From contig NZ_CP027773.1 in the NCBI RefSeq assembly GCF_003019815.1, positions 5,019,324 through 5,083,323 of the forward strand: a stretch of 64,000 bases of DNA, in the 5' to 3' direction. Every line of letters begins with the position of its first letter. Within the stretch, counting starts at the first letter, position 1. Below, piece by piece: positions 2,194-39,132 of this stretch. Position numbers and translations under genes: made by a program. This DNA comes from Variovorax sp. PMC12. GTDB lineage: Bacteria > Pseudomonadota > Gammaproteobacteria > Burkholderiales > Burkholderiaceae_C. The notes below the pieces were generated by a model. That model made no database searches and was not told the DNA's origin. It saw only the letters and a program-made list of their open reading frames with translations.

Positions 2194-3201
2194 TCAGTAG
2201 TTCACGGTTTCGCTGCGCTCGCCGCGAATCACTTCGACCTGGAGGCCGCCGCGCGTGCCGGTGCCGGTTGCGGCGCGCCGGTTGGCAGTGGCGGCAACAG
2301 CGCGCGCTTCGACGGCCGCGGGCTTGACGCTCGACCCCTGGCCGCCGGTGGACAGGTCGAGAGCGGTCAGGCCGGCCTGTGCGAGATCGAGTCCTTCGAG
2401 TGGCGCGCGGCGCGCCTCGCCCGCCTTGGACGACACGGGTTGCAATGCGGTGGGAAGTTCGGCGAAGAGTTTCGGGTCCGGCTGCGACATGTCATTGGGA
2501 TTGCGCAGTGCCAGCATCAGCCGGCCGCTGGCGTCGCCGATGGTCAGCCGGTTCACCTCGTCCACCGGCACCGCCAGCACGGCGGTGCGTGCCATCTCGT
2601 TGCGCTGGGCCTGCTGGGCGGCCGCCTTGTCGGGCGACTTGGACGGCATGCCGTCGACGGATGCGCTGCCGAAGGCCAGCACGCGCTTGCGGGAGAGCAG
2701 CAGTCGCGCCTGGCTGCGGTCGACGTCCTTGCCGTCCGACTTGAGCGTGATGAACACGTCGACGAAGTCGCCGGGCTGGATCTTGTTGCCCGCGCCCATG
2801 ATCTCGTCGGTCTTGATCGCGACCGCGCGCTCGCCTTCCGCGACGCGCAGCGCAAGGCCGGAGACGAGCTGGTTTTCCATCAGCGGGGTGCCTTCGGCGA
2901 GATCGATCACCGGCACGCGTCCGGCCGCCACGGATGCATCCTGGAACGCGCCCGCTGGGTTGATCGTCAGGCGCTCCACGCGCAGTGCATCCGCGGGAAT
3001 CGCCTCGCCCGCGGGCAGTGTCTTGGCTGCCACGACGACCGGATAGACCAGCACCTCCTTGGCCTTGGTGGGGGCTGCGGCGGGGCCCGTGGCCGCCGCG
3101 ACGGGAGCGGGTGCCTGGCGGCTCAGCATCCAGGCGTAGCCACCGAGTGCGATGGCCAGGAGCACGAGGAGGGCGGCGAGGATCTTGGTGAGGTTGATCA
3201 T
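2194..3201 (-). CDS. cpaB: Flp pilus assembly protein CpaB/RcpC (SAF domain)
   Basis: N-terminal TM anchor (MINLTKILAALLVLLAIALG), then SAF-like and RcpC regions. The track start at 3228 is a TTG, so the ATG at 3201 was chosen. Located between cpaA and cpaC. Confidence 0.8.
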   Translation of the reverse strand: MINLTKILAALLVLLAIALGGYAWMLSRQAPAPVAAATGPAAAPTKAKEVLVYPVVVAAKTLPAGEAIPADALRVERLTINPAGAFQDASVAAGRVPVIDLAEGTPLMENQLVSGLALRVAEGERAVAIKTDEIMGAGNKIQPGDFVDVFITLKSDGKDVDRSQARLLLSRKRVLAFGSASVDGMPSKSPDKAAAQQAQRNEMARTAVLAVPVDEVNRLTIGDASGRLMLALRNPNDMSQPDPKLFAELPTALQPVSSKAGEARRAPLEGLDLAQAGLTALDLSTGGQGSSVKPAAVEARAVAATANRRAATGTGTRGGLQVEVIRGERSETVNY

Positions 3202-28190: not shown

Positions 28191-28547
28191 TTACGCGATG
28201 CCGAGGATCGACGACACCGAGCGGTGGAGCTCTTCGACGAGTTCCGGGTCCATGTATTTGTACTCGTCCGGAATGTCGAGCACATGGATCGGCTTGCCTC
28301 CCAGCATTCGCGTGAACTCCGCCACAAGCCGCGACTTGTGCTTTTCTTCCATCACCAGGATCACGTCGGCCCATTCGATGTCGTCCACAGACACCGTGTG
28401 CCGCGCATTCGGGCTGGTGCCGGCCGAGCGTGCGCAGATAAGGGGATGCCGGCGCCAGATCTGCTCCGCGGTCGGGCTGCGCCATTGATTTCGGCTGCAG
28501 ATGAAGAGAACGTTGCGAACGGGTGAGGTCGATGGTTTTTCGGGCAT
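28191..28547 (-). CDS. Low-molecular-weight phosphotyrosine-phosphatase/ArsC-fold phosphatase
   Basis: P-loop CX5R(S): VLFICSRNQWRS near the N-terminus, and an Asp-Pro general-acid region (DIPDEY). ATG at 28547 chosen because the longer form overlaps ligT. Confidence 0.6.
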   Translation of the reverse strand: MPEKPSTSPVRNVLFICSRNQWRSPTAEQIWRRHPLICARSAGTSPNARHTVSVDDIEWADVILVMEEKHKSRLVAEFTRMLGGKPIHVLDIPDEYKYMDPELVEELHRSVSSILGIA

Positions 28548-28557
28548 GAATGAATAC

Positions 28558-29028
28558 TCAGGAGGTCGCCTCGGGCAACGCAAAGACATGCAAGTCCCGC
28601 CAACGCCCTGACGAGTTCTCCATCAGCGCGACCTCGGTGCAATGCGCATGCACAGCGCCAGATGCAAGAAGCCGGGTGCCCAGTTCGACGGCAGCATCTT
28701 CCGCATCGCGCACGTTGCCGTGTGCCACTGAAAGATGCGGAACGACGCCTTCGTGTTCGCCGCCATATGGCGGGAAATCGGGAAAGGCCTTCGCGAGCGC
28801 CAGCGTCATCTCGATGAAAGGGGCGGCGGGCTCGGGCGCCAGATACGCGGTCTCGGGAAACCGCCCGACCTTGCCCAGCGAGAACTCGAACGACGGCGTC
28901 TGCGCGAGCACGTGCCGCGCACTGTCCAGCACGTCTGCCGTGATCAGCGCGGGGTCCATGAAGGGAACAAGAAGCGTGATGTGTGCCGGCACGCCGAGCG
29001 CCACGGTCGTAGCGGCGGCGCAGATCAC
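28558..29028 (-). CDS. 2H phosphoesterase, LigT/ThpR-like 2',3'-cyclic phosphodiesterase (RNA 2'-5' ligase family)
   Basis: Two H-x-T/S-x motifs (HITLL and HLSVA) with the correct spacing. 156 aa. Immediately downstream of rtcR. Confidence 0.75.
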   Translation of the reverse strand: MICAAATTVALGVPAHITLLVPFMDPALITADVLDSARHVLAQTPSFEFSLGKVGRFPETAYLAPEPAAPFIEMTLALAKAFPDFPPYGGEHEGVVPHLSVAHGNVRDAEDAAVELGTRLLASGAVHAHCTEVALMENSSGRWRDLHVFALPEATS

Positions 29029-29115
29029 CGGCGATGGGCTCGGCGGCGGGAACCTTCACGACGAATGCGGAGATGGCCATCGGGCGGAGGATAGCCCATC
29101 GATGGCGCACTCCGA

Positions 29116-30735
<1,620 letters not shown>

Positions 30736-30870
30736 GGATATGAAACTAGCTAAATTTATAGATTTTGCGGGATTTTATAGGTATGGATCTAGTTCTCGAA
30801 ACACGTCGAAACGGAATTTCTCCTTTCCCGTCAATGACTTGCATCCCCGATCGTGAAAACTGCCCAAGGC

Positions 30871-30886
30871 TGGCACGCCGGCTGCA
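30871..30886 (+). promoter_or_regulatory. Sigma-54 (-24/-12) promoter TGGCAC-gccgg-CTGCA driving the rtc operon
   Basis: Matches the TGGCAC-N5-TTGCW consensus, with GG and GC at the proper spacing. Located 135 nt upstream of the divergent rtcR and about 540 nt upstream of the first rtc-operon CDS. Confidence 0.7.
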
Positions 30887-30896
30887 ATGGATATCC

Positions 30897-31424
30897 CGTC
30901 AGGATGCAGTCCATCCACTCGCAGGTGCCGCGTAGAAGCGGCCCGGTGCAGCAAGCCAGGCAAGTCCTTGGGTTTGCCGTATGCCGTGGCTGGGCTGCCT
31001 GGCAACTGAACTTGATTCAGTCCCGCTCATGGTTGAGCGCCGTGCTAACCACATGGAGCCGCGGGTTCGATTCCCGCAAAAAACCCGGCGGTGCCTGCAC
31101 CGCCACCTGATGGGGGCGAAAGCCCCTCCGCCCCGGCACACCGGAGCGATGGCGCAGGGCAAACATGCCCTGCGCCGCGCGCCAAAGTGCCAAGCGCAGG
31201 CGGCTTGCGCACCGCGTGCGTGGCAAGGAACTGCGTGTGGCCATCGAAGGCGAGGCAGGTGACGGCGTTGCAAAAGCGACGAGGGAGGCACCTGCCGAGC
31301 CGGGCGACCGCCGCACGTCAGGCCTTGGCTGCCGCAGTGCCCGCCGCCTGCCCTTTCGAGGGCCTAGACCGAATGACTGAAGACTGAACGAAGAAACGAA
31401 CCGAATAACGAGTGGGAGAAAAAG
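30897..31424 (+). ncRNA. Long structured 5' leader or candidate ncRNA of the rtc operon, containing a tRNA T-arm mimic (GCGGGTTCGATTCCCGC, 31061-31077) and several strong hairpins
   Basis: Perfect T-stem-loop consensus (GGGTTCGATTCCC). GNRA hairpin GGGGC-GAAA-GCCCC (31113-31126). 7-bp hairpin (31087-31104). 10-bp hairpin GGCGCAGGGC-aaacat-GCCCTGCGCC (31151-31176). Anticodon-like stem-loop CTGAA-cttga-TTCAG (31006-31020). No credible protein-coding potential. Boundaries are approximate. Confidence 0.45.
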
Positions 31425-32576
31425 ATGTTGGGCTTCAACCGAATCACGATCAAGAAGAACGAACGCGCGCTGCTGCTTCGCAACGGCGATTTCGAGCAAC
31501 TGCTGGGCGCCGGAAAGCACCGGGTGTTTTCGGGTTTCGACAAGATCCAGCTGCAGCGCTTTGCCCTGACCGAGCCGGCTTTCGAGCACGAGCTGGTCGA
31601 CTACTTCCTGGCACAGGAGCCTGAGCTGGTCGAGCGCGAGTTCGTGCATGTGTCGCTCGGCGAAACCCAGGCCGGCCTGCGCCTGGAGGACGGCGTGCTG
31701 GTGCAGATCCTGCCGCCCGCCACCCGCAAGCTGTACTGGCGCGGCCTGCGCGAACAGCGCATCGACGTGATCGACGTGGCTGAAGACGTGCGCCTGCCGG
31801 CCGAACTGGTGTCGAAGCTGCAGAGCGTGGCGCTGCGCCCGCGTGCGGTGGCCGGCCTCGACGGCGTGCTGCTGGTGCAGGTTCCGGAGTTCCACGTCGG
31901 CGTGCTGACGCTGCAGGGCCAGATGCAGGAGCTTCTGGCGCCGGGCAACCACGGTTTCTGGCGCTTCAACCGGCAGGTGGCAGTGACCTGCGTGGACATG
32001 CGCTCGCAGATCGCCGAAGTGAGCGGCCAGGAAATCCTGACCCGCGACAAGGTGGGCCTGCGGCTGAACATGTCGGCGGTGTGGCGCTTCACCGATGTGC
32101 GGCAGGCGATGGCGCAGATGCCGAAGCCGGCCGACCATGTGTATCGCGAGCTGCAGTTCGGGCTTCGCGCCGCGGTGGGCGAGCAGACGCTCGATGCGCT
32201 GCTGGAGAACAAGGCGGCCATCGACCAGACGGTGCTGGCGCAAGTGCGCGAGCGGCTGGAAGGCTCCGGCATTGCGCTGGAAAGCGTGGGCGTGAAGGAC
32301 ATCATCCTGCCCGGCGAGATGAAGACCATCCTCGCCCAGGTGGTGGAGGCCGAGAAGTCGGCCCAGGCCAACGTGATCCGCCGCCGCGAGGAAACCGCGG
32401 CCACGCGCTCGCTGCTGAACACCGCCAAGGTGATGGAGGGCAACCCCGTCGCGCTGCGGATGAAGGAACTCGAAACGCTGGAACGGGTGGCCGAGCGGAT
32501 CGACAAGATCTCCGTGATCGGCGGTCTGGACCAAGTGCTCAATGGGTTGGTGACGCTTCGGCCGAACGCTCCTTGA
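31425..32576 (+). CDS. SPFH/band-7 (stomatin/prohibitin-like) domain protein with an extra N-terminal domain
   Basis: C-terminal SPFH region (..ILTRDKVGLRLNMSAVWRFTDV..VKDIILPGEMKTILAQVVEAEKSAQANVIRRREE..). RBS GGGAGAAAAAG. First gene of the rtc operon. Confidence 0.8.
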   Translation: MLGFNRITIKKNERALLLRNGDFEQLLGAGKHRVFSGFDKIQLQRFALTEPAFEHELVDYFLAQEPELVEREFVHVSLGETQAGLRLEDGVLVQILPPATRKLYWRGLREQRIDVIDVAEDVRLPAELVSKLQSVALRPRAVAGLDGVLLVQVPEFHVGVLTLQGQMQELLAPGNHGFWRFNRQVAVTCVDMRSQIAEVSGQEILTRDKVGLRLNMSAVWRFTDVRQAMAQMPKPADHVYRELQFGLRAAVGEQTLDALLENKAAIDQTVLAQVRERLEGSGIALESVGVKDIILPGEMKTILAQVVEAEKSAQANVIRRREETAATRSLLNTAKVMEGNPVALRMKELETLERVAERIDKISVIGGLDQVLNGLVTLRPNAP

Positions 32577-32631
32577 ACTCCGGACTCGAGAAGGATTGAC
32601 TGGCGCCGAAGAGGCGCCAAGGGAGAAGAAA

Positions 32632-33126
32632 ATGACCGAAGAAGAAATTCGCGCACACGACCTCATCGCCTATGACCTGCACGACGCGGGCTGGGCCGAC
32701 GTGAGCTTCCGCGCCGCTTCCGAGCGACTGGGCTTCGCGGTGTCCTACCTGCACGATTCGCTCGGCGACCTTGCGCGCATGGGCCTGACCCTGCAAAAGG
32801 GTGCCGAGCACGCCGAGGCCGTGTTCATGGACGAGCCGGGCGAGGTGATCCTGCTGGTCTCGGGTGCTTGGGACGTGTTGCAGTACGAGCTGCGCCAGTA
32901 CCGTGACTGGGCCAGCTGGGGAATGGTCGGTGTGCATGACCATGAAGTGGTGGCGCGCGGAGAGATTTCGCGTACCGAGCTGGTCCGGAACATCCATGCG
33001 ATCCTGCAGCGCATCCACGATGAAGTGGGGCCGAAGCGCTACCGCGAGATGTGGGTGGAGCACGACTTCCCGCTGCAGGACTACGAACGACTGTCGATCG
33101 CGCTGTACAAGCGCGCGATGACCTGA
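32632..33126 (+). CDS. Hypothetical protein (164 aa) between the SPFH gene and rtcB
   Basis: ATG at 32632 with RBS GGGAGAAG. Acidic protein with no recognisable motif. Confidence 0.55.
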   Translation: MTEEEIRAHDLIAYDLHDAGWADVSFRAASERLGFAVSYLHDSLGDLARMGLTLQKGAEHAEAVFMDEPGEVILLVSGAWDVLQYELRQYRDWASWGMVGVHDHEVVARGEISRTELVRNIHAILQRIHDEVGPKRYREMWVEHDFPLQDYERLSIALYKRAMT

Positions 33127-33160
33127 ACAGAGGAGTGAAACGATGATGAAAGAAGAAAAA

Positions 33161-34378
33161 ATGAACTACAACCTGCACGAAGTCGAGAACGGCGTGCCCG
33201 TGAAGATGTGGACCCGCGGCGTGCCCGTGGAGCCCGAGGCGCAGAAGCAGCTGGAGAACGCAGCGCGCCTGCCCATCGTGTTCAAGCACATTGCGGCCAT
33301 GCCCGACGTGCACTACGGCATCGGCGCCACCGTGGGTTCGGTGATCCCGACCTTCAAGGCCATCATTCCCACCGCGGTGGGCGTGGACATCGGCTGCGGA
33401 ATGATGGCGTGCAAGACCACGCTGCATGCCAACGACCTGCCCGACAACCTGGGGCCGCTGCGCTCGGCGATCGAGAAGGCCGTGCCGCACGGCTCGAACC
33501 CCAAGCGCATGGGCCGCGACAAGGGCTCGTGGGAGACGCCGCCGAACGAAACCGACGTGGCATGGGGTGCGCTGAAGGACGAGTTCGACGCGATCTGCGA
33601 AGACTACCCGCGCCTGAAGAACACCAACAACCACAAGCACCTGGGAACGCTGGGTACGGGCAACCACTTCATCGAGGTGTGCCTGGACGAGGCGGGCTCC
33701 GTGTGGTTCATGCTGCATTCGGGTTCGCGCGGCGTGGGTAACGCCATCGGCACGCACTTCATCGAGCTCGCCAAGAAAGACGCCGAGCTGCACCAGCGCA
33801 ACCTGCCCGATCAGGACCTGGCGTACTTCGAGGAAGGCGCCCAGTACTTCGGCGACTATGTGCGCGCCGTGGGCTGGGCCCAGAAGTTCGCGCGCGCGAA
33901 CCGCGAAGTGATGATGCAGCGCGTGGTAGCGGCCGTTCGCAAGGTCATCACCAAGCCTTTCGAGGCGCATGTGGAAGCGGTGAACTGCCACCACAACTAC
34001 GTGAGCCGCGAAACGCACTTCGGTGAAGACGTGCTCGTCACCCGCAAGGGCGCGGTGAGCGCGAAGGCCGGCGAGTTGGGGATCATCCCCGGCAGCATGG
34101 GCGCCAAGAGCTTCATCGTGCGCGGAAAAGGCAACCCCGAGAGCTTCATGAGCTGCAGCCACGGTGCCGGTCGAAAGATGAGCCGTACCAAGGCGAAGAA
34201 GCTCTACACCGTGGCCGACCAAGTCGCCGCGACCGAAGGCGTGGAATGCCGAAAAGACGCCGACGTGATCGACGAGATCCCGATGGCCTACAAGGACATC
34301 GACGCGGTGATGGAGGCGCAGCAGGACCTGGTGGAGGTGGTCTACACGCTCAAGCAGGTTGTTTGCGTGAAGGGGTGA
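33161..34378 (+). CDS. rtcB: RNA-splicing ligase RtcB (3'-phosphate/5'-hydroxyl RNA ligase)
   Basis: Near-collinear with E. coli RtcB from MNY.. to the C-terminal ..YTLKQVVCVKG. Metal ligands and nucleophilic His region conserved (HGSNP.., GTGNHFIE, CHHNY, SCSHGAGR). ATG at 33161 (MNYNLHE) chosen to match the canonical N-terminus. Confidence 0.92.
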   Translation: MNYNLHEVENGVPVKMWTRGVPVEPEAQKQLENAARLPIVFKHIAAMPDVHYGIGATVGSVIPTFKAIIPTAVGVDIGCGMMACKTTLHANDLPDNLGPLRSAIEKAVPHGSNPKRMGRDKGSWETPPNETDVAWGALKDEFDAICEDYPRLKNTNNHKHLGTLGTGNHFIEVCLDEAGSVWFMLHSGSRGVGNAIGTHFIELAKKDAELHQRNLPDQDLAYFEEGAQYFGDYVRAVGWAQKFARANREVMMQRVVAAVRKVITKPFEAHVEAVNCHHNYVSRETHFGEDVLVTRKGAVSAKAGELGIIPGSMGAKSFIVRGKGNPESFMSCSHGAGRKMSRTKAKKLYTVADQVAATEGVECRKDADVIDEIPMAYKDIDAVMEAQQDLVEVVYTLKQVVCVKG

Positions 34379-34475
34379 GAGGGTGAGGTCCAAGTACGGC
34401 CTCACGATGGCGCTGTAGAGGGAGAGCTATCGATAGGCTGCGCCTTCGCAGCGCTGTATTGCGAAGGGCTGAAAA

Positions 34476-35117
34476 ATGAAGAGCAACAAGCAACGCCGCG
34501 CCGAGATCAAGGCGCACCGCCGCGAGCGTGCTGCCGCTCTGGCAGCACGCTCGCGCCTGCCGGATGTCCGGCTGCCGAAAGCCGACTTCGCCGATGCACT
34601 CGGTTGCGAGCCGGCGGATCGAGCTGTTCTGCAGCAACACAACAACACCTACGGCGTGCTGCCTGACTTCTATGTCGCGCGTTCATTCATCTGCCGCGAT
34701 TGCGGTGCCGACGAGGTATGGACGGCCAAGCAGCAGAAATGGTGGTACGAGACGATTCAGGGTCACATCGACAGCCGTGCCGTGCGATGCCTCGCATGCA
34801 GGCGCGCACGGCGCGAACGTTTGCGAGCCGTTGCGCCTGGCGCCGACCTTCTGCTCGAGAAGACGTGTCGACTGCGTGCGTTGGGTGCGGCAAAGCCGAG
34901 CGTTCAAGCCAGGGCCGAAATCGAGGCGGCATTGCAAAGCAAATGGTGGAGCCTGCGTGTCGTGGCGATCCAGGCAATGGGGCGCTGGGGCGGTGAAGAG
35001 AACCTCGCACGGCTACACGCGTTCATGGCGTCTCGTCCGGAGGGAGGTCGCCGATACTTCGGTTGGGAGCGCGTCGCCGCGGACGCTGCAAGAAGCGCAT
35101 TGATGCGCAGGGAGTGA
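34476..35117 (+). CDS. Hypothetical Zn-ribbon-containing protein (213 aa)
   Basis: C-x2-C ... C-x2-C (CRDCGADEVW ... CLACRRARR), Arg/Lys-rich N-terminus. Sits in the operon between rtcB and the RNase Z-like gene. Confidence 0.5.
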   Translation: MKSNKQRRAEIKAHRRERAAALAARSRLPDVRLPKADFADALGCEPADRAVLQQHNNTYGVLPDFYVARSFICRDCGADEVWTAKQQKWWYETIQGHIDSRAVRCLACRRARRERLRAVAPGADLLLEKTCRLRALGAAKPSVQARAEIEAALQSKWWSLRVVAIQAMGRWGGEENLARLHAFMASRPEGGRRYFGWERVAADAARSALMRRE

Positions 35118-35125
35118 TCAACGAG

Positions 35126-36082
35126 ATGATGAAACTGACTTTTCTGGGTACCTCCTCCGGTACCCCCACGCGCCACCGCAACGTCTCCGGCCTCGCCGTG
35201 CAGACGGTGCTCGGCCCGGACTGGTTCCTGCTCGACTGCGGCGAGGGCACGCAGCATCGCGTGCTGCAAACGCCGCTGTCCCTGAACGACCTGGCCGCCG
35301 TCTGCATCACGCATGTGCACGGCGACCACTGCTACGGCCTGCCGGGCCTGCTCGCGAGTGCGGGCATGAACAAGCGCACGAAGCCGCTGAAGCTGATTGC
35401 GCCGCTGCCGGTGTGGGAGTGGTTCGAGGCGACGCGCGCGTTGACCGATCTGCATCTGCCCTACGAAGTCGAGCATGTGGATATCGGCGGACCGCTGTTG
35501 GTGTATGAGGTGCCGGGCCTGCGCATCGAAAGCCATGCGCTGATGCATCGTGTGCCCAGCCACGCTTACCGCATGCAAGTCGAGACGCGGCGCGTGCGGC
35601 TGAAAGCGGACGCATTGCGCGCCATCGGCCTGCCACCCGGCCCCGCATGGCGTGCGCTGCAGCAGGGCGAGGACATGCCTTTCAACGGCGGCATGCTGCG
35701 CAGCGCCGACTACACCGAGACCCAGGTCGAAACGGTTGCCGCCGTTGTGGGCGGTGACAACGCCAAACCCGCGTTGCTGCACGACGCCTGCAGGGGCGCG
35801 CAACTGCTGGTGCACGAGGCCACCTTCACGCAGGAGGCACTCGACAAGGTCGGCCCCGGGCCGATGCACAGCTCCGCGCGCCTGCTGGCCGAGTTCGCGC
35901 AGGCGGCCGAAGTGCCCAACCTGATCCTCACGCACTTCAGCGCGCGCCACCAGAACGAAGAGGGCATGGCTGCTTTGATGGCAGAGGCGCAGGCGCACTA
36001 CCGCGGCCATGCGTTCCTGGCCAGCGACCTGGATGTCTACGAGCTCGACAGTGCCGGCAACGTGACCGTCACCCGGGCTTGA
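35126..36082 (+). CDS. Metallo-beta-lactamase-fold ribonuclease, RNase Z/RNase BN-like
   Basis: HxHxDH motif (ITHVHGDHCYGLPGLL) and RNase Z-like length (318 aa). N-terminus MMKLTFLGTSSGTPT matches the RNase Z start. Confidence 0.7.
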   Translation: MMKLTFLGTSSGTPTRHRNVSGLAVQTVLGPDWFLLDCGEGTQHRVLQTPLSLNDLAAVCITHVHGDHCYGLPGLLASAGMNKRTKPLKLIAPLPVWEWFEATRALTDLHLPYEVEHVDIGGPLLVYEVPGLRIESHALMHRVPSHAYRMQVETRRVRLKADALRAIGLPPGPAWRALQQGEDMPFNGGMLRSADYTETQVETVAAVVGGDNAKPALLHDACRGAQLLVHEATFTQEALDKVGPGPMHSSARLLAEFAQAAEVPNLILTHFSARHQNEEGMAALMAEAQAHYRGHAFLASDLDVYELDSAGNVTVTRA

Positions 36083-36108
36083 CGAGAAAAGAAGACAAGA
36101 AGAAAGAC

Positions 36109-36960
36109 ATGAGTACCGAAGAATTCCTGCGCTCTGCCCACCCGATCGAGCCCGCCGTGCGCACGCAGATCATGGAGGCCCTGAGCGACATCGAAGCAAC
36201 GCATGACGTGACCGTGCTGTTCGCCTGCGAATCCGGCAGCCGCGGCTGGGGCTTCGCCTCGCCCGACAGCGACTACGACGTGCGCTTCATCTACGTCAAC
36301 CGCCTGCCGTGGTACCTCACGGTGGCACCGCGTCGCGACGTGATCGAGGTGCCGATCAGCGGCGACCTCGACATCAACGGCTGGGACCTGCGCAAGGCGC
36401 TGGGCCTGATGCGCGAGTCGAACCCGACGCTGCTCGAGTGGCTGCGCTCGCCCATCGTCTACCGCGACGACGCGGTGGCGATGCCGCGCTTTCGCGCGCT
36501 GTCGGAGGCCGTGTTCTCCAACGCGCGCGGCTGGCATCACTACAGCTCGATGGCGAAGAAGAATTTCCGCGAGCATCTGCAGGCCGACGAGGTGCGCTAC
36601 AAGAAATACCTCTACGTGCTGCGACCTCTGCTGGCCGCGCGCTGGATCCGCTCGCGCGCCGGCGTGCCGCCCATGCGCTTCGCCGACCTGGCGCAGCACA
36701 CGCTCGACCCGGTGCGCGACGCGGCGCTGATCGCCGAGATCAACGCGCTGCTCGAGGTGAAGATGCGCGCCGGCGAAGCCGCGACCAGCCCGCGCTGGCC
36801 GGGTATCCACGCGTTCATCGAAGCCGAGCTGGCGGCCAATGCAGCCGAGCCGGTGACGCCGCTGCCGTCGGCCGATGGTTCGGGGCTCGATGCGTTCCTG
36901 TACGACACGGTGCTGCGTCTCGAGGCGGTGAACAAGAAGAAGGAGGCCGTCCATGATTGA
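36109..36960 (+). CDS. Pol-beta-superfamily nucleotidyltransferase (RtcB-associated NTase)
   Basis: GS...D-x-D nucleotidyltransferase motif (LFACESGSRGWGFASPDSDYDVRFIYV). ATG at 36109 preceded by a purine-rich RBS. The track start at 36079 is a TTG. Confidence 0.65.
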   Translation: MSTEEFLRSAHPIEPAVRTQIMEALSDIEATHDVTVLFACESGSRGWGFASPDSDYDVRFIYVNRLPWYLTVAPRRDVIEVPISGDLDINGWDLRKALGLMRESNPTLLEWLRSPIVYRDDAVAMPRFRALSEAVFSNARGWHHYSSMAKKNFREHLQADEVRYKKYLYVLRPLLAARWIRSRAGVPPMRFADLAQHTLDPVRDAALIAEINALLEVKMRAGEAATSPRWPGIHAFIEAELAANAAEPVTPLPSADGSGLDAFLYDTVLRLEAVNKKKEAVHD

Positions 36961-37990
36961 ACTCGACGGCTCCCAAGGCGAGGGCGGCGGCCAGATCCTG
37001 CGCACCAGCCTCGCGCTGTCGGTGGCCACCGGCCAGCCGCTGGCCATCGAGAAGATCCGCGCGGGCCGTGCCAAGCCGGGCCTGATGCGCCAGCATCTGG
37101 CGTGCGTGAACGCTGCCGCCGCGATCAGCGGTGCGCAAGTCGAAGGCGCCGAGCTCGGATCGCAGTCGCTGCGCTTCACGCCCTGCTCGGTGCGCGCGGG
37201 CGAGTACCGCTTCGCGATCTCGGGTGCGGGCAGCTGCATGCTGGTGCTGCAGACCGTGCTTCCGCCGCTGCTGCTGGCTGGCGCACAGAGCCGCGTGCAC
37301 CTGAGCGGCGGCACGCACAACCCGATGGCGCCGCCGTTCCATTTCCTGGAGCGCGCTTTCGCGCCGCTGGTGCGCCGCCTGGGGGCGGACCTGCAACTGA
37401 CGCTTCGCCGCTGCGGCTTCTACCCGGCCGGCGGCGGCGAGGTGGAGGCGGTTATCGTGCCGGCGGCCGGCCCGCTGCAGCCCTTCGACCTGACCGCGCG
37501 CGGCGCGCACCGGGCCGGTCACGCGGAGTGCCTGGCACCGGGCCTGCCGCGCCATGTGCCGACGCGCGAACTCGACACGCTGGGCGGCGCGATGGGCTGG
37601 TCCGGCGAGCAGCTGCGCCTGGGCGCGGTGCGCCAGAACGAAGGGCCGGGCAATGCGCTGATGGCCACGCTGGCCTACGAACACGTCACCGAGGTGTTCA
37701 CCGCCTTCGGCGAAAAGTCGATGAGCGCGGAGCAGGTGGCGCATGGCCTGGCCAGGGAGCTGCGCGCGTTCCAGAAGAGCGAGGCGGCGGTCGGACCGCA
37801 CCTCGCTGATCAGCTGGCGCTGCTGCAGGCGCTTGCCGCGTGGCAGGGCAGGAAGGCCTGCGCCTTCACCTGCAGCGAGGTGACGGAGCACACGCGCACC
37901 AACTGCGCGGTGATCGAGCGCTTCCTGCCCGTGCGCTTCGCCATCGCCGAGGGCGGCGATGCCTGCAGGGTGCAGGTCGCTCCGGCCTGA
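36953..37990 (+). CDS. rtcA: RNA 3'-terminal phosphate cyclase RtcA
   Basis: MIELDGSQGEGGGQILRTSLALS.. is the RtcA signature N-terminus. 345 aa. Overlaps the NTase stop. Confidence 0.9.
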   Translation: MIELDGSQGEGGGQILRTSLALSVATGQPLAIEKIRAGRAKPGLMRQHLACVNAAAAISGAQVEGAELGSQSLRFTPCSVRAGEYRFAISGAGSCMLVLQTVLPPLLLAGAQSRVHLSGGTHNPMAPPFHFLERAFAPLVRRLGADLQLTLRRCGFYPAGGGEVEAVIVPAAGPLQPFDLTARGAHRAGHAECLAPGLPRHVPTRELDTLGGAMGWSGEQLRLGAVRQNEGPGNALMATLAYEHVTEVFTAFGEKSMSAEQVAHGLARELRAFQKSEAAVGPHLADQLALLQALAAWQGRKACAFTCSEVTEHTRTNCAVIERFLPVRFAIAEGGDACRVQVAPA

Positions 37991-38021
37991 GCGGAAAACT
38001 CCTTTCCGCTGTCGTGGTTGA
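37991..38021 (+). terminator. Possible intrinsic terminator after rtcA (GCGGAAA-actcc-TTTCCGC followed by a T-containing tract)
   Basis: 7-bp stem hairpin at 37991-38009 followed by TGTCGTGGTTG. The T-run is weak. Confidence 0.35.
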
Positions 38022-38067
38022 ACGCGGCGCGGGCCGGCGGGAAACTCGGGACAAAGACAGGAAAGCC

Positions 38068-39132
38068 ATGACCACCTCCTCATTCGTCTACAACAGCGTG
38101 CCCCAGCGGGTGGTGTTCGGCGCGGGGTCGCTGCAGCATCTGGCGCGCGAGATCGATGCGCTGGGCGCAAGGCGCGCGCTGGTGCTCTCCACGCCCGAGC
38201 AGCGCCCGCAGGCCGAGCGCGTGGCGGCCATGCTGGGCGGCCACGCGGCCGGTGTGTTCGACCGGGCGGTGATGCACGTGCCCATCGAGACCGCTCGCGA
38301 GGCCAGGGAGGTGGTGCAGCGCCTGGGCGCCGATTGCGCGGTGGCCATCGGCGGGGGCTCCACCACCGGTCTGGGCAAGGCGATCGCGCTCGACTCCGGG
38401 CTGCCGATCCTCGCCATACCGACCACCTATGCGGGTTCCGAGATGACGCCGATCTACGGCCTCACCGAAGCCGGCATGAAGAAGACGGGCAAGGACATCC
38501 GGGTGCTGCCGCGCACGGTGATCTACGACCCGGAGCTTTCCTTGAGCCTGCCCGTGGGCATCAGCGTGACAAGCGGCATCAACGCCATCGCGCATGCGGC
38601 CGAGGGGCTCTACGCGGTCGATTCGAATCCGGTGATGGACCTGATGGCGCAGGAGGGCATTGCCGCGCTGGGCCGGGCGCTGCCCGCCATCCGCGCCACA
38701 CCGCAAGACCCGGGCGCTCGCGGCGATGCGCTCTATGGCGCCTGGCTCTGCGGCGCGGTGCTGGGCAATGTCGGCATGGCACTGCACCACAAGCTGTGCC
38801 ACACGCTGGGCGGCAGCTTCAACCTGCCGCACGCGGAGACGCACACCATCGTGCTGCCGCATGCGCTGGCCTACAACGCGGAAGCGGCGCCGCAGGCCAT
38901 GGCGCGCATATTGAAGGCGCTCGGGGGAAGCAGCAGCGCCGCGCAGGCCGTGTACGACCTGGCACGCGACAACGGCGCGCCTGTCGCGTTGCGCGACATC
39001 GGCATGAAGGAGTCCGATCTCGACCTGGCCTGCGAGCGTGCGCTCAAGAACCAGTATCCCAATCCGCGCCCGCTGGAGCGCGATGCGATCCGCGCCCTGC
39101 TGCAGAACGCCTGGGAAGGCGTGCGGCCCTGA
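38068..39132 (+). CDS. Maleylacetate reductase (iron-containing alcohol dehydrogenase family)
   Basis: MTTSSFVYNSVPQRVVFGAGSL.. and Fe-ADH fold motifs (GGGSTTGLGKAIA). ATG at 38068 with RBS. The upstream in-frame extension is discounted. Confidence 0.8.
   Translation: MTTSSFVYNSVPQRVVFGAGSLQHLAREIDALGARRALVLSTPEQRPQAERVAAMLGGHAAGVFDRAVMHVPIETAREAREVVQRLGADCAVAIGGGSTTGLGKAIALDSGLPILAIPTTYAGSEMTPIYGLTEAGMKKTGKDIRVLPRTVIYDPELSLSLPVGISVTSGINAIAHAAEGLYAVDSNPVMDLMAQEGIAALGRALPAIRATPQDPGARGDALYGAWLCGAVLGNVGMALHHKLCHTLGGSFNLPHAETHTIVLPHALAYNAEAAPQAMARILKALGGSSSAAQAVYDLARDNGAPVALRDIGMKESDLDLACERALKNQYPNPRPLERDAIRALLQNAWEGVRP

Follow-up and report, generated by a model that had tools for sequence, protein, structure and literature searches.

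We analysed a 64-kb stretch of Variovorax sp. PMC12 DNA (contig NZ_CP027773.1, positions 5,019,324 to 5,083,323; hereafter the window), in which rtcR and an operon for slipin, RtcB, an RNase Z homologue, RlaP and RtcA diverge from each other and are separated by a promoter and a leader of ~530 nt. The subject here is this leader. It is almost certainly a conserved multi-domain structured RNA, whose centre (31024-31077) is a divergent member of the b7a-tRNA family (tRNA associated with band 7). RtcB/RtcA operons are widespread, and the question addressed is how their enzymes find substrates and what role the tRNA mimics encoded in such operons have. Coordinates are window positions unless a locus label (L001 etc.) is given. 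The genes and the promoter of the locus are as follows.

29116-30735, minus strand: rtcR, sigma-54 enhancer-binding activator, N-terminal domain of the RtcR/CARF type (Pfam RtcR, 1.8e-81; Sigma54_activat, 5.4e-50)
30871-30886, plus strand: sigma-54 promoter TGGCAC-N5-CTGCA, TGGCACGCCGGCTGCA
31425-32576, plus strand: slipin (SPFH/Band-7), 383 amino acids, the first plus-strand coding sequence (Pfam Band_7, 2.4e-28)
32596-33126, between the slipin and RtcB genes: open reading frame (ORF) of 176 amino acids without family match
33143-34378, plus strand: RtcB (Pfam)
34476-35117, plus strand: zf_Tbcl protein (Pfam)
35063-36082, plus strand: RNase Z homologue (Pfam; NCBIfam RNase_Z TIGR02651 at 238 bits, below the equivalog cut-off of 293)
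36079-36960, plus strand: RlaP nucleotidyltransferase (Pfam)
36953-37990, plus strand: RtcA (Pfam)

An AT-rich spacer of 135 nt lies between rtcR and the sigma-54 promoter, which is the sole match to TGGCAC-N5-YTGCA in the 64 kb (0.16 expected by chance). Transcription would start near 30895-30897, at the base of the first helix of the leader. Prediction detected neither an intrinsic terminator on the plus strand in 30600-31600 nor a sigma-70 promoter in the leader. Judging by this arrangement, an RtcR-dependent sigma-54 promoter drives a slipin-rtcB transcript whose 5′ part is the leader (about 30896-31424). In Salmonella, tRNA halves or nicked tRNAs with 2′,3′-cyclic phosphate ends activate RtcR (PMC7790460, PMC10159003), and the CARF domain of RtcR is bound by RtcA and RtcB (PMC9650030).

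The 535-nt leader folds with an energy of −270 kcal/mol, compared with −227 kcal/mol for shuffled sequences (z = −6.4; none of 100 shuffles was as good). Three ORFs of 85, 93 and 98 amino acids overlap with it (30853-31110, 30981-31262 and 31091-31387), none of which is conserved. A small-protein reading was rejected: indels of 1 and 2 nt, which break the frame, occur along the whole leader in close relatives, the ORF that opens at an invariant ATG (30981) varies from 4 to 526 codons among 137 distinct loci, and this AUG lies inside a conserved helix (P3, below). A BLAST search with the leader against 72 556 plasmids gave no match.

The features of the leader are listed below; R1 and R2 are covariance models built, respectively, from 71 loci of genera other than Variovorax and from 28 non-Variovorax loci.

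30904-31000, plus strand: 5′ domain, a three-way junction of helices P1, P2 and P3 (R2 full-length match, 35.2 bits, E 3.3e-6)
approximately 30908-30919 with 30986-30997, plus strand: P1, which closes the 5′ domain (by inspection and the Variovorax alignment only)
within 30904-31000, plus strand: P2, hairpin GCCGC-GUAGAA-GCGGC (in the family, a G-rich hairpin with a one-base bulge)
within 30904-31000, plus strand: P3, closed by the invariant GGUGC/GC-(AU bulge)-GCC with a U-G wobble, about 30951-30955 with 30979-30985; AUGCCG at 30981-30986
31005-31021, plus strand: 6-bp hairpin ACUGAA-CUUGA-UUCAGU (local minimum-energy fold), at the position of the acceptor 5′ strand
31024-31077, plus strand: tRNA-like core, made of D-arm, anticodon-arm homologue, variable region and T-arm, without acceptor stem
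31024-31039, plus strand: D-arm GCUC-AUGGUU-GAGC with the GG kept (CGCUCA-UGGU-UGAGCG in the local fold)
31040-31056, plus strand: anticodon-arm homologue CCGUG-CUAACCA-CAUGG, with a five-pair stem and a 7-base loop (local fold)
31057-31060, plus strand: variable region AGCC
31061-31077, plus strand: T-arm GCGGGTTCGATTCCCGC = GCGGGUUCGAUUCCCGC, GCGGG-UUCGAUU-CCCGC, exact consensus
31078-31086, plus strand: A-rich linker AAAAAACCC
31087-31104, plus strand: 7-bp hairpin GGCGGUG-CCUG-CACCGCC (in the Variovorax clade, 100% paired and one pair compensatory)
31112-31127, plus strand: GNRA-capped hairpin GGGGGC-GAAA-GCCCCU, with which the 3′ domain starts; no variation within the Variovorax clade
31128-31360, plus strand: 3′ domain, several hairpins within long-range helices (RNAalifold)
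31361-31424, plus strand: unstructured A/G-rich tract with GAAYGA-like repeats and the Shine-Dalgarno sequence GGGAGA before the slipin start (from the sequence)

The T-arm, the most conspicuous of these elements, has a core (GGGTTCGANTCCC) that occurs once in the window against 0.00 expected; it ends 348 nt upstream of the slipin start codon, in a locus that encodes RtcB, RtcA and RtcR. The D-arm and the anticodon arm stand directly 5′ of it with the spacing of a tRNA. Acceptor pairing is absent, as the flanking bases, UUCAGUCC and AAAAAAC, cannot pair. The hairpin at 31005-31021 sits two or three bases before the D-arm, where other genera carry a further tRNA-like unit (unit 1, below). This hairpin may take the place of the acceptor stem in closed form, stacking on the T-stem. 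A long-range acceptor stem, UUCAGUC with GACUGAA at 31366-31380, appeared in the single-sequence fold and was rejected: RNAalifold on relatives does not support it, and the 3′ tract is polymorphic in length.

An initial annotation of this DNA had described a sigma-54 promoter followed by more than 500 nt without credible coding potential, and in them an exact T-stem-loop consensus at 31061-31077 from which no complete tRNA could be assembled. All of this was borne out by the single promoter match and the unconserved leader ORFs, by the unique T-arm core and by the flanks that cannot pair; ARAGORN, run for tRNA and tmRNA genes, called no tRNA gene in the window, and Rfam at gathering thresholds gave no match there. 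The hairpins it had named are present too, at 31005-31021 (given as 31006-31020), 31087-31104, 31113-31126 (GGGGC-GAAA-GCCCC) and 31151-31176. What it had overlooked were the D-arm and the anticodon arm. The T-arm is not isolated, it belongs to a three-arm tRNA core within a multi-domain RNA of roughly 500 nt, and the stem-loop taken for anticodon-like (31006-31020) cannot be so named, with the homologues of both arms lying between that hairpin and the T-arm.

At relaxed thresholds, the Rfam tmRNA model matched the T-arm locally (18.9 bits, E 1.7e-5); this match was rejected, as were chance-level matches such as those to CC3552 and mir-1271. A terminator-like site on the minus strand (31105-31086), with an 8-bp GC-rich stem and then GGTTTTTTGC, corresponds in reverse complement to the A-rich linker plus the hairpin that follows the T-arm. 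We rejected it as a by-product: from shuffles, about 1.2 sites of this sort are to be expected per region, and there is no minus-strand gene that precedes or needs it.

To place the core in a family, we collected 80 loci with slipin orthologues, one genome per species, from Burkholderiales, Rhodocyclales and Pseudomonas; six loci were added through exact-protein look-ups and 80 from metagenomes. Enough upstream DNA was available in 141 distinct loci. A T-loop motif was observed 150-700 nt upstream of the slipin start in 135 of the 141, and 93 had two such motifs about 70-77 nt apart. Position and orientation of the element relative to slipin are fixed across Burkholderiales, Rhodocyclales and Pseudomonas. 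Conservation in orthologous rtc loci, which the initial annotation had itself proposed as a test that could refute it, was thus found in the motif counts, in the R1 matches and in the covariation given below.

Many units of the family are called tRNAs by ARAGORN and by the Rfam tRNA model (RF00005, 36-69 bits). Their 'anticodons' vary among the loci (Thr, Met, Ile, Ala, Lys and others) or consist of two or four nucleotides. Among 71 proximal units from non-Variovorax genera, the D-arm and the T-arm are nearly invariant and the anticodon stem covaries, while the anticodon loop can be anything between 7 nt and a GNRA or UUCG tetraloop. These units have a short acceptor stem of four to five good pairs, with the inner four pairs well kept. 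Over the cloverleaf of the family 87.9% of alignment cells are paired, with a covariation of 0.363, as compared with 0.133 in shuffles and at most 0.106 for slid partners.

In the window, R1 scores 33.4 bits (E 4.7e-9) at 31025-31077. Only model positions 14-70 are aligned, which hold the D, anticodon and T arms; the acceptor falls outside them. Of 40 independent metagenomic loci, R1 recovered 35, on the strand of the operon and at the distance expected; the matches to the family models are all on the operon strand.

Where two units are present, the distal one (unit 1; e.g. L004 about 3060-3130, L054 about 3090-3160, L063 about 3100-3170) takes several forms. In most Betaproteobacteria it has an acceptor-like stem, one extra hairpin and a T-arm, without D-arm; in Pseudomonas it is a full cloverleaf. 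Variovorax has just a hairpin at this place.

The Variovorax type was studied in 23 distinct sequences, with slipin identities of 87-100%, plus Comamonas serinivorans. These sequences have one unit only and no acceptor pairing; the unit is flanked by UUCAGUYY and RAAAAAC. Each of the six helices in 31005-31127 is 95.6-100% paired, with compensatory changes in five pairs, and over the clade 98.8% of cells are paired. The front hairpin, ACUG(A/G)A-loop-U(U/C)CAGU, has A-U as its fifth pair in 12 and G-C in 11 of the 23 sequences; Comamonas serinivorans has an unrelated hairpin, CUUGG..CCAAG, at the same position. The T-arm is invariant in all 23, and the bases of the anticodon loop drift (CUAACCA, UUGACCA, UGGAUCA etc.). 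The D-loop of the window is shortened relative to the family. By these comparisons, both the acceptor stem and the second tRNA-like unit were lost in the Variovorax lineage, which carries a covarying hairpin at the acceptor position, and the pattern of substitutions is that of selection on structure, not of decay.

The elements of the tRNA elbow, the T-loop UUCGAUU and the D-loop AUGGUU, are both (nearly) invariant in the 23 sequences. The constant tRNA-like feature of the element is this D-loop/T-loop elbow and not the anticodon or the acceptor end. Of the properties of a canonical tRNA, the window copy has the exact T-arm consensus, the GG of the D-loop and a five-pair anticodon stem. It differs in having no seven-pair acceptor stem or CCA end and no conserved anticodon loop, and in being called neither by ARAGORN nor, with RF00005 below its threshold, by Rfam. 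Since the anticodon is unconserved within the family and often replaced by a tetraloop, it cannot decode.

The tRNA-like core is embedded between a 5′ and a 3′ domain that, in our alignments, are both conserved and covarying. The AUGCCG of P3 was found 60-110 nt upstream of the first unit in 78 of 81 sequences (80 loci and the window). For P2 and P3 together (79 sequences), 90.6% of cells are paired, and the covariation of 0.489 exceeds that of shuffles (0.182) and of slid partners (at most 0.156); pair 119-161 of the 5′-domain alignment is C-G in 39 sequences and G-C in 31. The internal loops of P1 are too divergent to be aligned by MAFFT across genera, and R2 holds only the first two P1 pairs. 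The distance from the promoter to AUGCCG, counted where a sigma-54 promoter was found just upstream (roughly 55 of about 80 loci), is nearly fixed at 105-127 nt; four loci whose 5′ domain has insertions reach as far as 156 nt. The 5′ domain therefore begins essentially at the transcription start.

A second AUGCCG was seen ~230-240 nt upstream of the main one in L006, L013, L014, L017-L021, L031 and L040. This suggests, from the motif and its spacing, a tandem duplicate of the 5′ domain in lineages without rtcR; in L006, L013 and L021 the second copy gave no R2 score at E < 0.01.

On the 3′ side, a hairpin follows the tRNA-like unit in every lineage inspected and is itself followed by a domain of 220-515 nt (median 280). 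The counterpart of the GNRA-capped hairpin in other Burkholderiales is GGUCG(A/C)AAGACC, followed by ACCCGCC. For seven whole leaders of the Variovorax type RNAalifold gave 134 pairs, 28 of them compensatory; for the 3′ domain of 32 leaders from Pseudomonas, Burkholderia and Rhodocyclales it gave 43 pairs, 32 of which are changed on both sides. In these 32 leaders the closing helix, GCCGGUG/CACCGGC, ends about 20-30 nt before the ribosome-binding site. The 10-bp hairpin at 31151-31176 lies within the 3′ domain. Its status is ambiguous, because it is truncated in two relatives (L003 and L086) and because its 5′ strand (GGCG..GGGC, 31151-31160) can alternatively pair with GCCC.GCCG near 31339-31350. 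Neither domain matched an Rfam family, in the window or in 18 related loci searched at gathering thresholds, and both are candidates for new Rfam families.

As to the identity of the RNA, the initial annotation had offered a YrlA or Y-RNA-like RNA and, in the alternative, a Ro-less variant or a different class of tRNA-like RNA. The YrlA label could not be kept. The Rfam models for Y RNA and YrlA gave no match at gathering thresholds in the window or in the 18 related loci and none at E ≤ 10 in 30700-31500; no TROVE domain was detected among ten ORFs scanned in 28361-39132, the operon has no Rsr gene, and the arms come in another order. The 'different class' did stand, and it can be given a name. 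A band 7-associated tRNA beside Band-7 and RtcB genes was predicted by Burroughs and Aravind (2016), as quoted in bioRxiv 10.1101/312249, where a proposal by the same authors of a cofactor role with RtcB for Rsr and Y RNAs is quoted as well. The element in the window is adjacent to a Band-7/SPFH gene in an RtcB locus, has the D, anticodon and T arms and is homologous to the family by R1. It differs from other family members by the missing acceptor stem with a hairpin in its place, by the shortened D-loop and by being a single unit, not one of two. In its abstract, the 2016 study reportedly sets SPFH/Band-7 modules and a 'novel tRNA-like molecule' beside Ro and Y RNAs as their equivalent, and reportedly extends the cofactor idea to Band-7 and b7a-tRNA. 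The tRNA-like class, having been predicted in 2016, is not categorically new; apart from that preprint, we found no mention of b7a-tRNA in the literature searched. What goes beyond the descriptions found is the single-unit form without acceptor and the embedding of the core between two covarying domains.

YrlA (Chen et al. 2014; PDB 6cu1) is still instructive for comparison. Both RNAs are tRNA mimics in an rtcB operon controlled by RtcR, both have conserved D and T arms without a free CCA end and, possibly, a closed acceptor-like stem-loop, and for both the proposed partner is a ring- or cage-forming protein in RNA repair. YrlA is permuted at the anticodon stem; its ends form the stem that binds Ro60, and the order is T, closed acceptor, D. 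In the window, the arms follow one another as hairpin, D, anticodon, T, with a closed anticodon arm, and no Rsr gene is present in the operon. Stacking of the front hairpin on the T-stem would make a permutation other than that of YrlA.

The protein that would correspond to Ro60 is slipin. Its AlphaFold model (pLDDT 76, pTM 0.53) has a beta-rich N-terminus of ~145 amino acids, an SPFH domain and a long helix, and no N-terminal membrane helix. Foldseek searches with the model gave stomatin and HflK/C as best matches; the longest alignments were to major vault protein, over 444-467 columns and with a TM-score of about 0.42. The shoulder domain of major vault protein is SPFH-like, and the slipin model aligns with this protein over its full length (repeats, SPFH shoulder, helix). 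The model suggests that slipin forms a soluble cage and is not a protein of membrane microdomains. The likeness to the vault particle and to the Ro60/Y RNA particle would consist in a non-membrane protein of the repeat-SPFH-helix type whose gene neighbours that of a small structured RNA. In sequence this RNA has no relation to vault RNAs; the comparison is no more than an analogy, and the structure model is of moderate confidence.

On balance, we are inclined to the explanation that the leader is a structured RNA of the b7a-tRNA type that is induced via RtcR and serves as a partner of slipin and of the repair enzymes, while its functional part is offered more tentatively, as perhaps somewhat short of an even chance. 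Damaged tRNA would activate RtcR, so that the RNA is made in step with the repair proteins. Those enzymes of the operon that recognise tRNA (RtcB, RtcA, the RNase Z homologue and RlaP) would find a generic handle in the tRNA elbow, and the flanking domains would bind a cytoplasmic, cage-forming SPFH protein. The repair activities would thereby be assembled on or in a slipin scaffold, comparable to the partnership of a Y RNA with Ro60. Where the units of a genus have real acceptor stems, discrete tRNA-sized RNAs would probably be released by RNase P and 3′ nucleases, and the Variovorax mimic, without acceptor stem, would probably stay within the longer RNA. Modules of the MALAT1 mascRNA type offer a parallel for a tRNA-shaped module that sits within a longer transcript and could dictate its processing; they are eukaryotic and unrelated, and their acceptor stems, which RNase P recognises, are missing in the window. 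The genomic linkage is in line with such a partnership, with rtcR (divergent) in 60 and RtcB in 73 of 86 related loci linked to the leader.

Several observations weigh against this explanation. Loss of the acceptor stem removes the very part of a tRNA on which RtcB, RNase Z and enzymes of the CCA type usually act. The presumed partners are not universal, as the RNase Z gene occurs in 2 and the RlaP gene in 23 of the 86 loci. In four Pseudomonas-like metagenomic loci (L163-L166) plain hairpins replace the tRNA-like units and the sigma-54 promoter is kept; the mimic is dispensable in some lineages. In one of the four, L163 (e.g. 360-800), the sole one searched with R2, the 5′ three-way junction was found at 68 bits, and a 3′ domain was recognised by inspection. 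The resemblance of slipin to the vault protein comes from a medium-confidence model (pTM 0.53) with TM-scores near 0.4. Finally, as of 2018 the b7a-tRNA was experimentally unvalidated, according to the passage on it in bioRxiv 10.1101/312249.

A further explanation, which we regard as possible, if rather doubtful, is that the leader represents an undescribed class of large structured RNA (roughly 450-550 nt), in which the tRNA-like unit is just one module; a bacterial particle of this RNA and slipin would organise RtcB-based repair. The class as proposed would start at the transcription start of RtcR/sigma-54 (or tRNA-array) promoters and would comprise a 5′ three-way junction with the invariant GGUGC/GC-AU-GCC helix, zero to two tRNA-like modules and a 3′ domain closed over a long range, its partner being a cytoplasmic slipin that resembles the vault protein.

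We consider it unlikely that the leader is primarily a cis-acting regulator, i.e. a folded 5′ untranslated region (UTR) that, together with the mimic, controls the stability or translation of the slipin-rtcB mRNA. In variants of this proposal RtcB or RtcA would bind the leader, or the leader would be cleaved and religated, with the outcome of operon feedback or of ligand-like fragments for the CARF domain of RtcR. By construction the RNA is the 5′ UTR of the operon, without internal promoter or terminator; in many genera its 3′ domain is closed 20-30 nt short of the ribosome-binding site, and the local or distal pairing of 31151-31160 looks switch-like. Also, RtcR senses tRNA halves with cyclic phosphates, and its CARF domain binds RtcA and RtcB (PMC7790460, PMC9650030). 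Still, the Shine-Dalgarno sequence and the start codon lie in the unstructured A/G-rich tract and are not sequestered by a conserved helix. The anticodon loops, being unconserved and often tetraloops, make specific cleavage by an anticodon nuclease unlikely, and 500 nt of conserved three-domain structure far exceed the needs of known leaders of this kind. Nor did the leader match any Rfam riboswitch or T-box family, at gathering or relaxed thresholds, and for an attenuator a plus-strand terminator was missing from 30600-31600.

The same tRNA shape could be thought to work as a decoy, absorbing as a competitive inhibitor the toxins that target tRNA, such as nucleases of the anticodon or of the acceptor stem, or enzymes that modify or degrade it, while repair is under way. 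The elbow and the T-arm are indeed the most conserved parts, and induction coincides with tRNA damage. We find this improbable: with one or two mimics to an mRNA, competition with the cellular tRNA pool is hard to imagine, the usual determinants of toxins, acceptor stems and anticodon loops, are exactly the parts that vary or are lost, and both the conserved 5′ and 3′ domains and the strict linkage to slipin would be left unexplained.

Nor are we much persuaded that the Variovorax element is an evolutionary relic, a decaying b7a-tRNA without function in a leader of which the rest matters. The missing acceptor stem, the shortened D-loop and the single unit, where 93 of 141 loci have two, would fit such a relic, and L163-L166 show that complete loss of the unit is possible. 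A relic is not expected to show a T-arm invariant in 23 sequences, six helices paired at 95.6-100% with compensatory changes, and an anticodon loop whose nucleotides drift freely while the helices are kept.

That there is no RNA element at all can practically be discounted: an exact T-arm without acceptor stem does resemble a truncated tRNA gene, such as an island attachment site, and leader ORFs of 85-98 amino acids do exist, one of them opening at the invariant ATG (93 amino acids, 30981-31262), but the tRNA-remnant or attachment-site reading is rejected by a position and orientation conserved across orders and by covarying stems, and the small-protein gene by the indels, the variable ORF length and the AUG within P3 described above.

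For the preferred explanation, a b7a-tRNA-type RNA that partners slipin and the repair enzymes, the locus has much to offer. The Ro-linked mimic YrlA has a crystal structure, and its role in repair is not established. Here, the sigma-54 promoter fixes where the RNA starts, namely at the foot of the first helix, the domain map of the whole leader is supported by covariation, the Variovorax element is a natural minimal mimic that keeps just the tRNA elbow, and natural variants have two, one or zero units. The resulting questions, which can be put to a culturable organism (Variovorax paradoxus and its relatives), are whether the elbow recruits repair enzymes, whether the flanking domains bind slipin and whether the two make a vault-like particle.

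The A/G-rich tract in front of slipin deserves mention. Its GAAYGA repeats (31361-31410, with equivalents in L001, L002, L083 and L086) differ in length by tens of nucleotides among near-identical strains, which suggests, from these comparisons, that the tract is prone to slippage.

Some observations concern the genes around the leader. The window belongs to a Variovorax of the paradoxus group, and its slipin protein is 97-100% identical to Variovorax entries. The ORF of 176 amino acids that follows it recurs in just 2 of the 86 loci. The RNase Z homologue is of the second-copy type, and there is a 55-nt overlap between its ORF and the end of the zf_Tbcl ORF; the homologue recurs solely in the closest Variovorax relatives, the same lineage in which the mimic has no acceptor stem. 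In a 90%-identical relative (L083, 1-175, minus strand) the gene downstream of rtcR encodes a protein of the 2′-5′ RNA ligase family (PF13563); the window ORF at the same position (28361-29149) has no family match. An extra T-arm-like element was seen between slipin and rtcB in L001 (4873-4894), L002 (4884-4905), L003 (4849-4908) and L083 (3874-3895), with R1 scores of ~20 bits; unlike these close Variovorax relatives, the window gave no R1 match there.

Slipin-rtcB loci without a divergent rtcR, in Burkholderiales of the Rubrivivax, Aquabacterium and Roseateles type, have five to ten canonical-looking tRNA genes 1-2 kb upstream on the same strand. The arrays are located as follows.

L006, 1799-2342
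L008, 1749-2209
L009, 1654-2214
L010, 153-2031
L011, 1295-2369
L014, 65-511
L021, 401-1197
L024, 1729-2345
L040, 1611-2136

In Anabaena, TrcR co-represses a tRNA array, rtcB and a slipin gene (PMC10272220), and the link between tRNA arrays, slipin and RtcB may be general.

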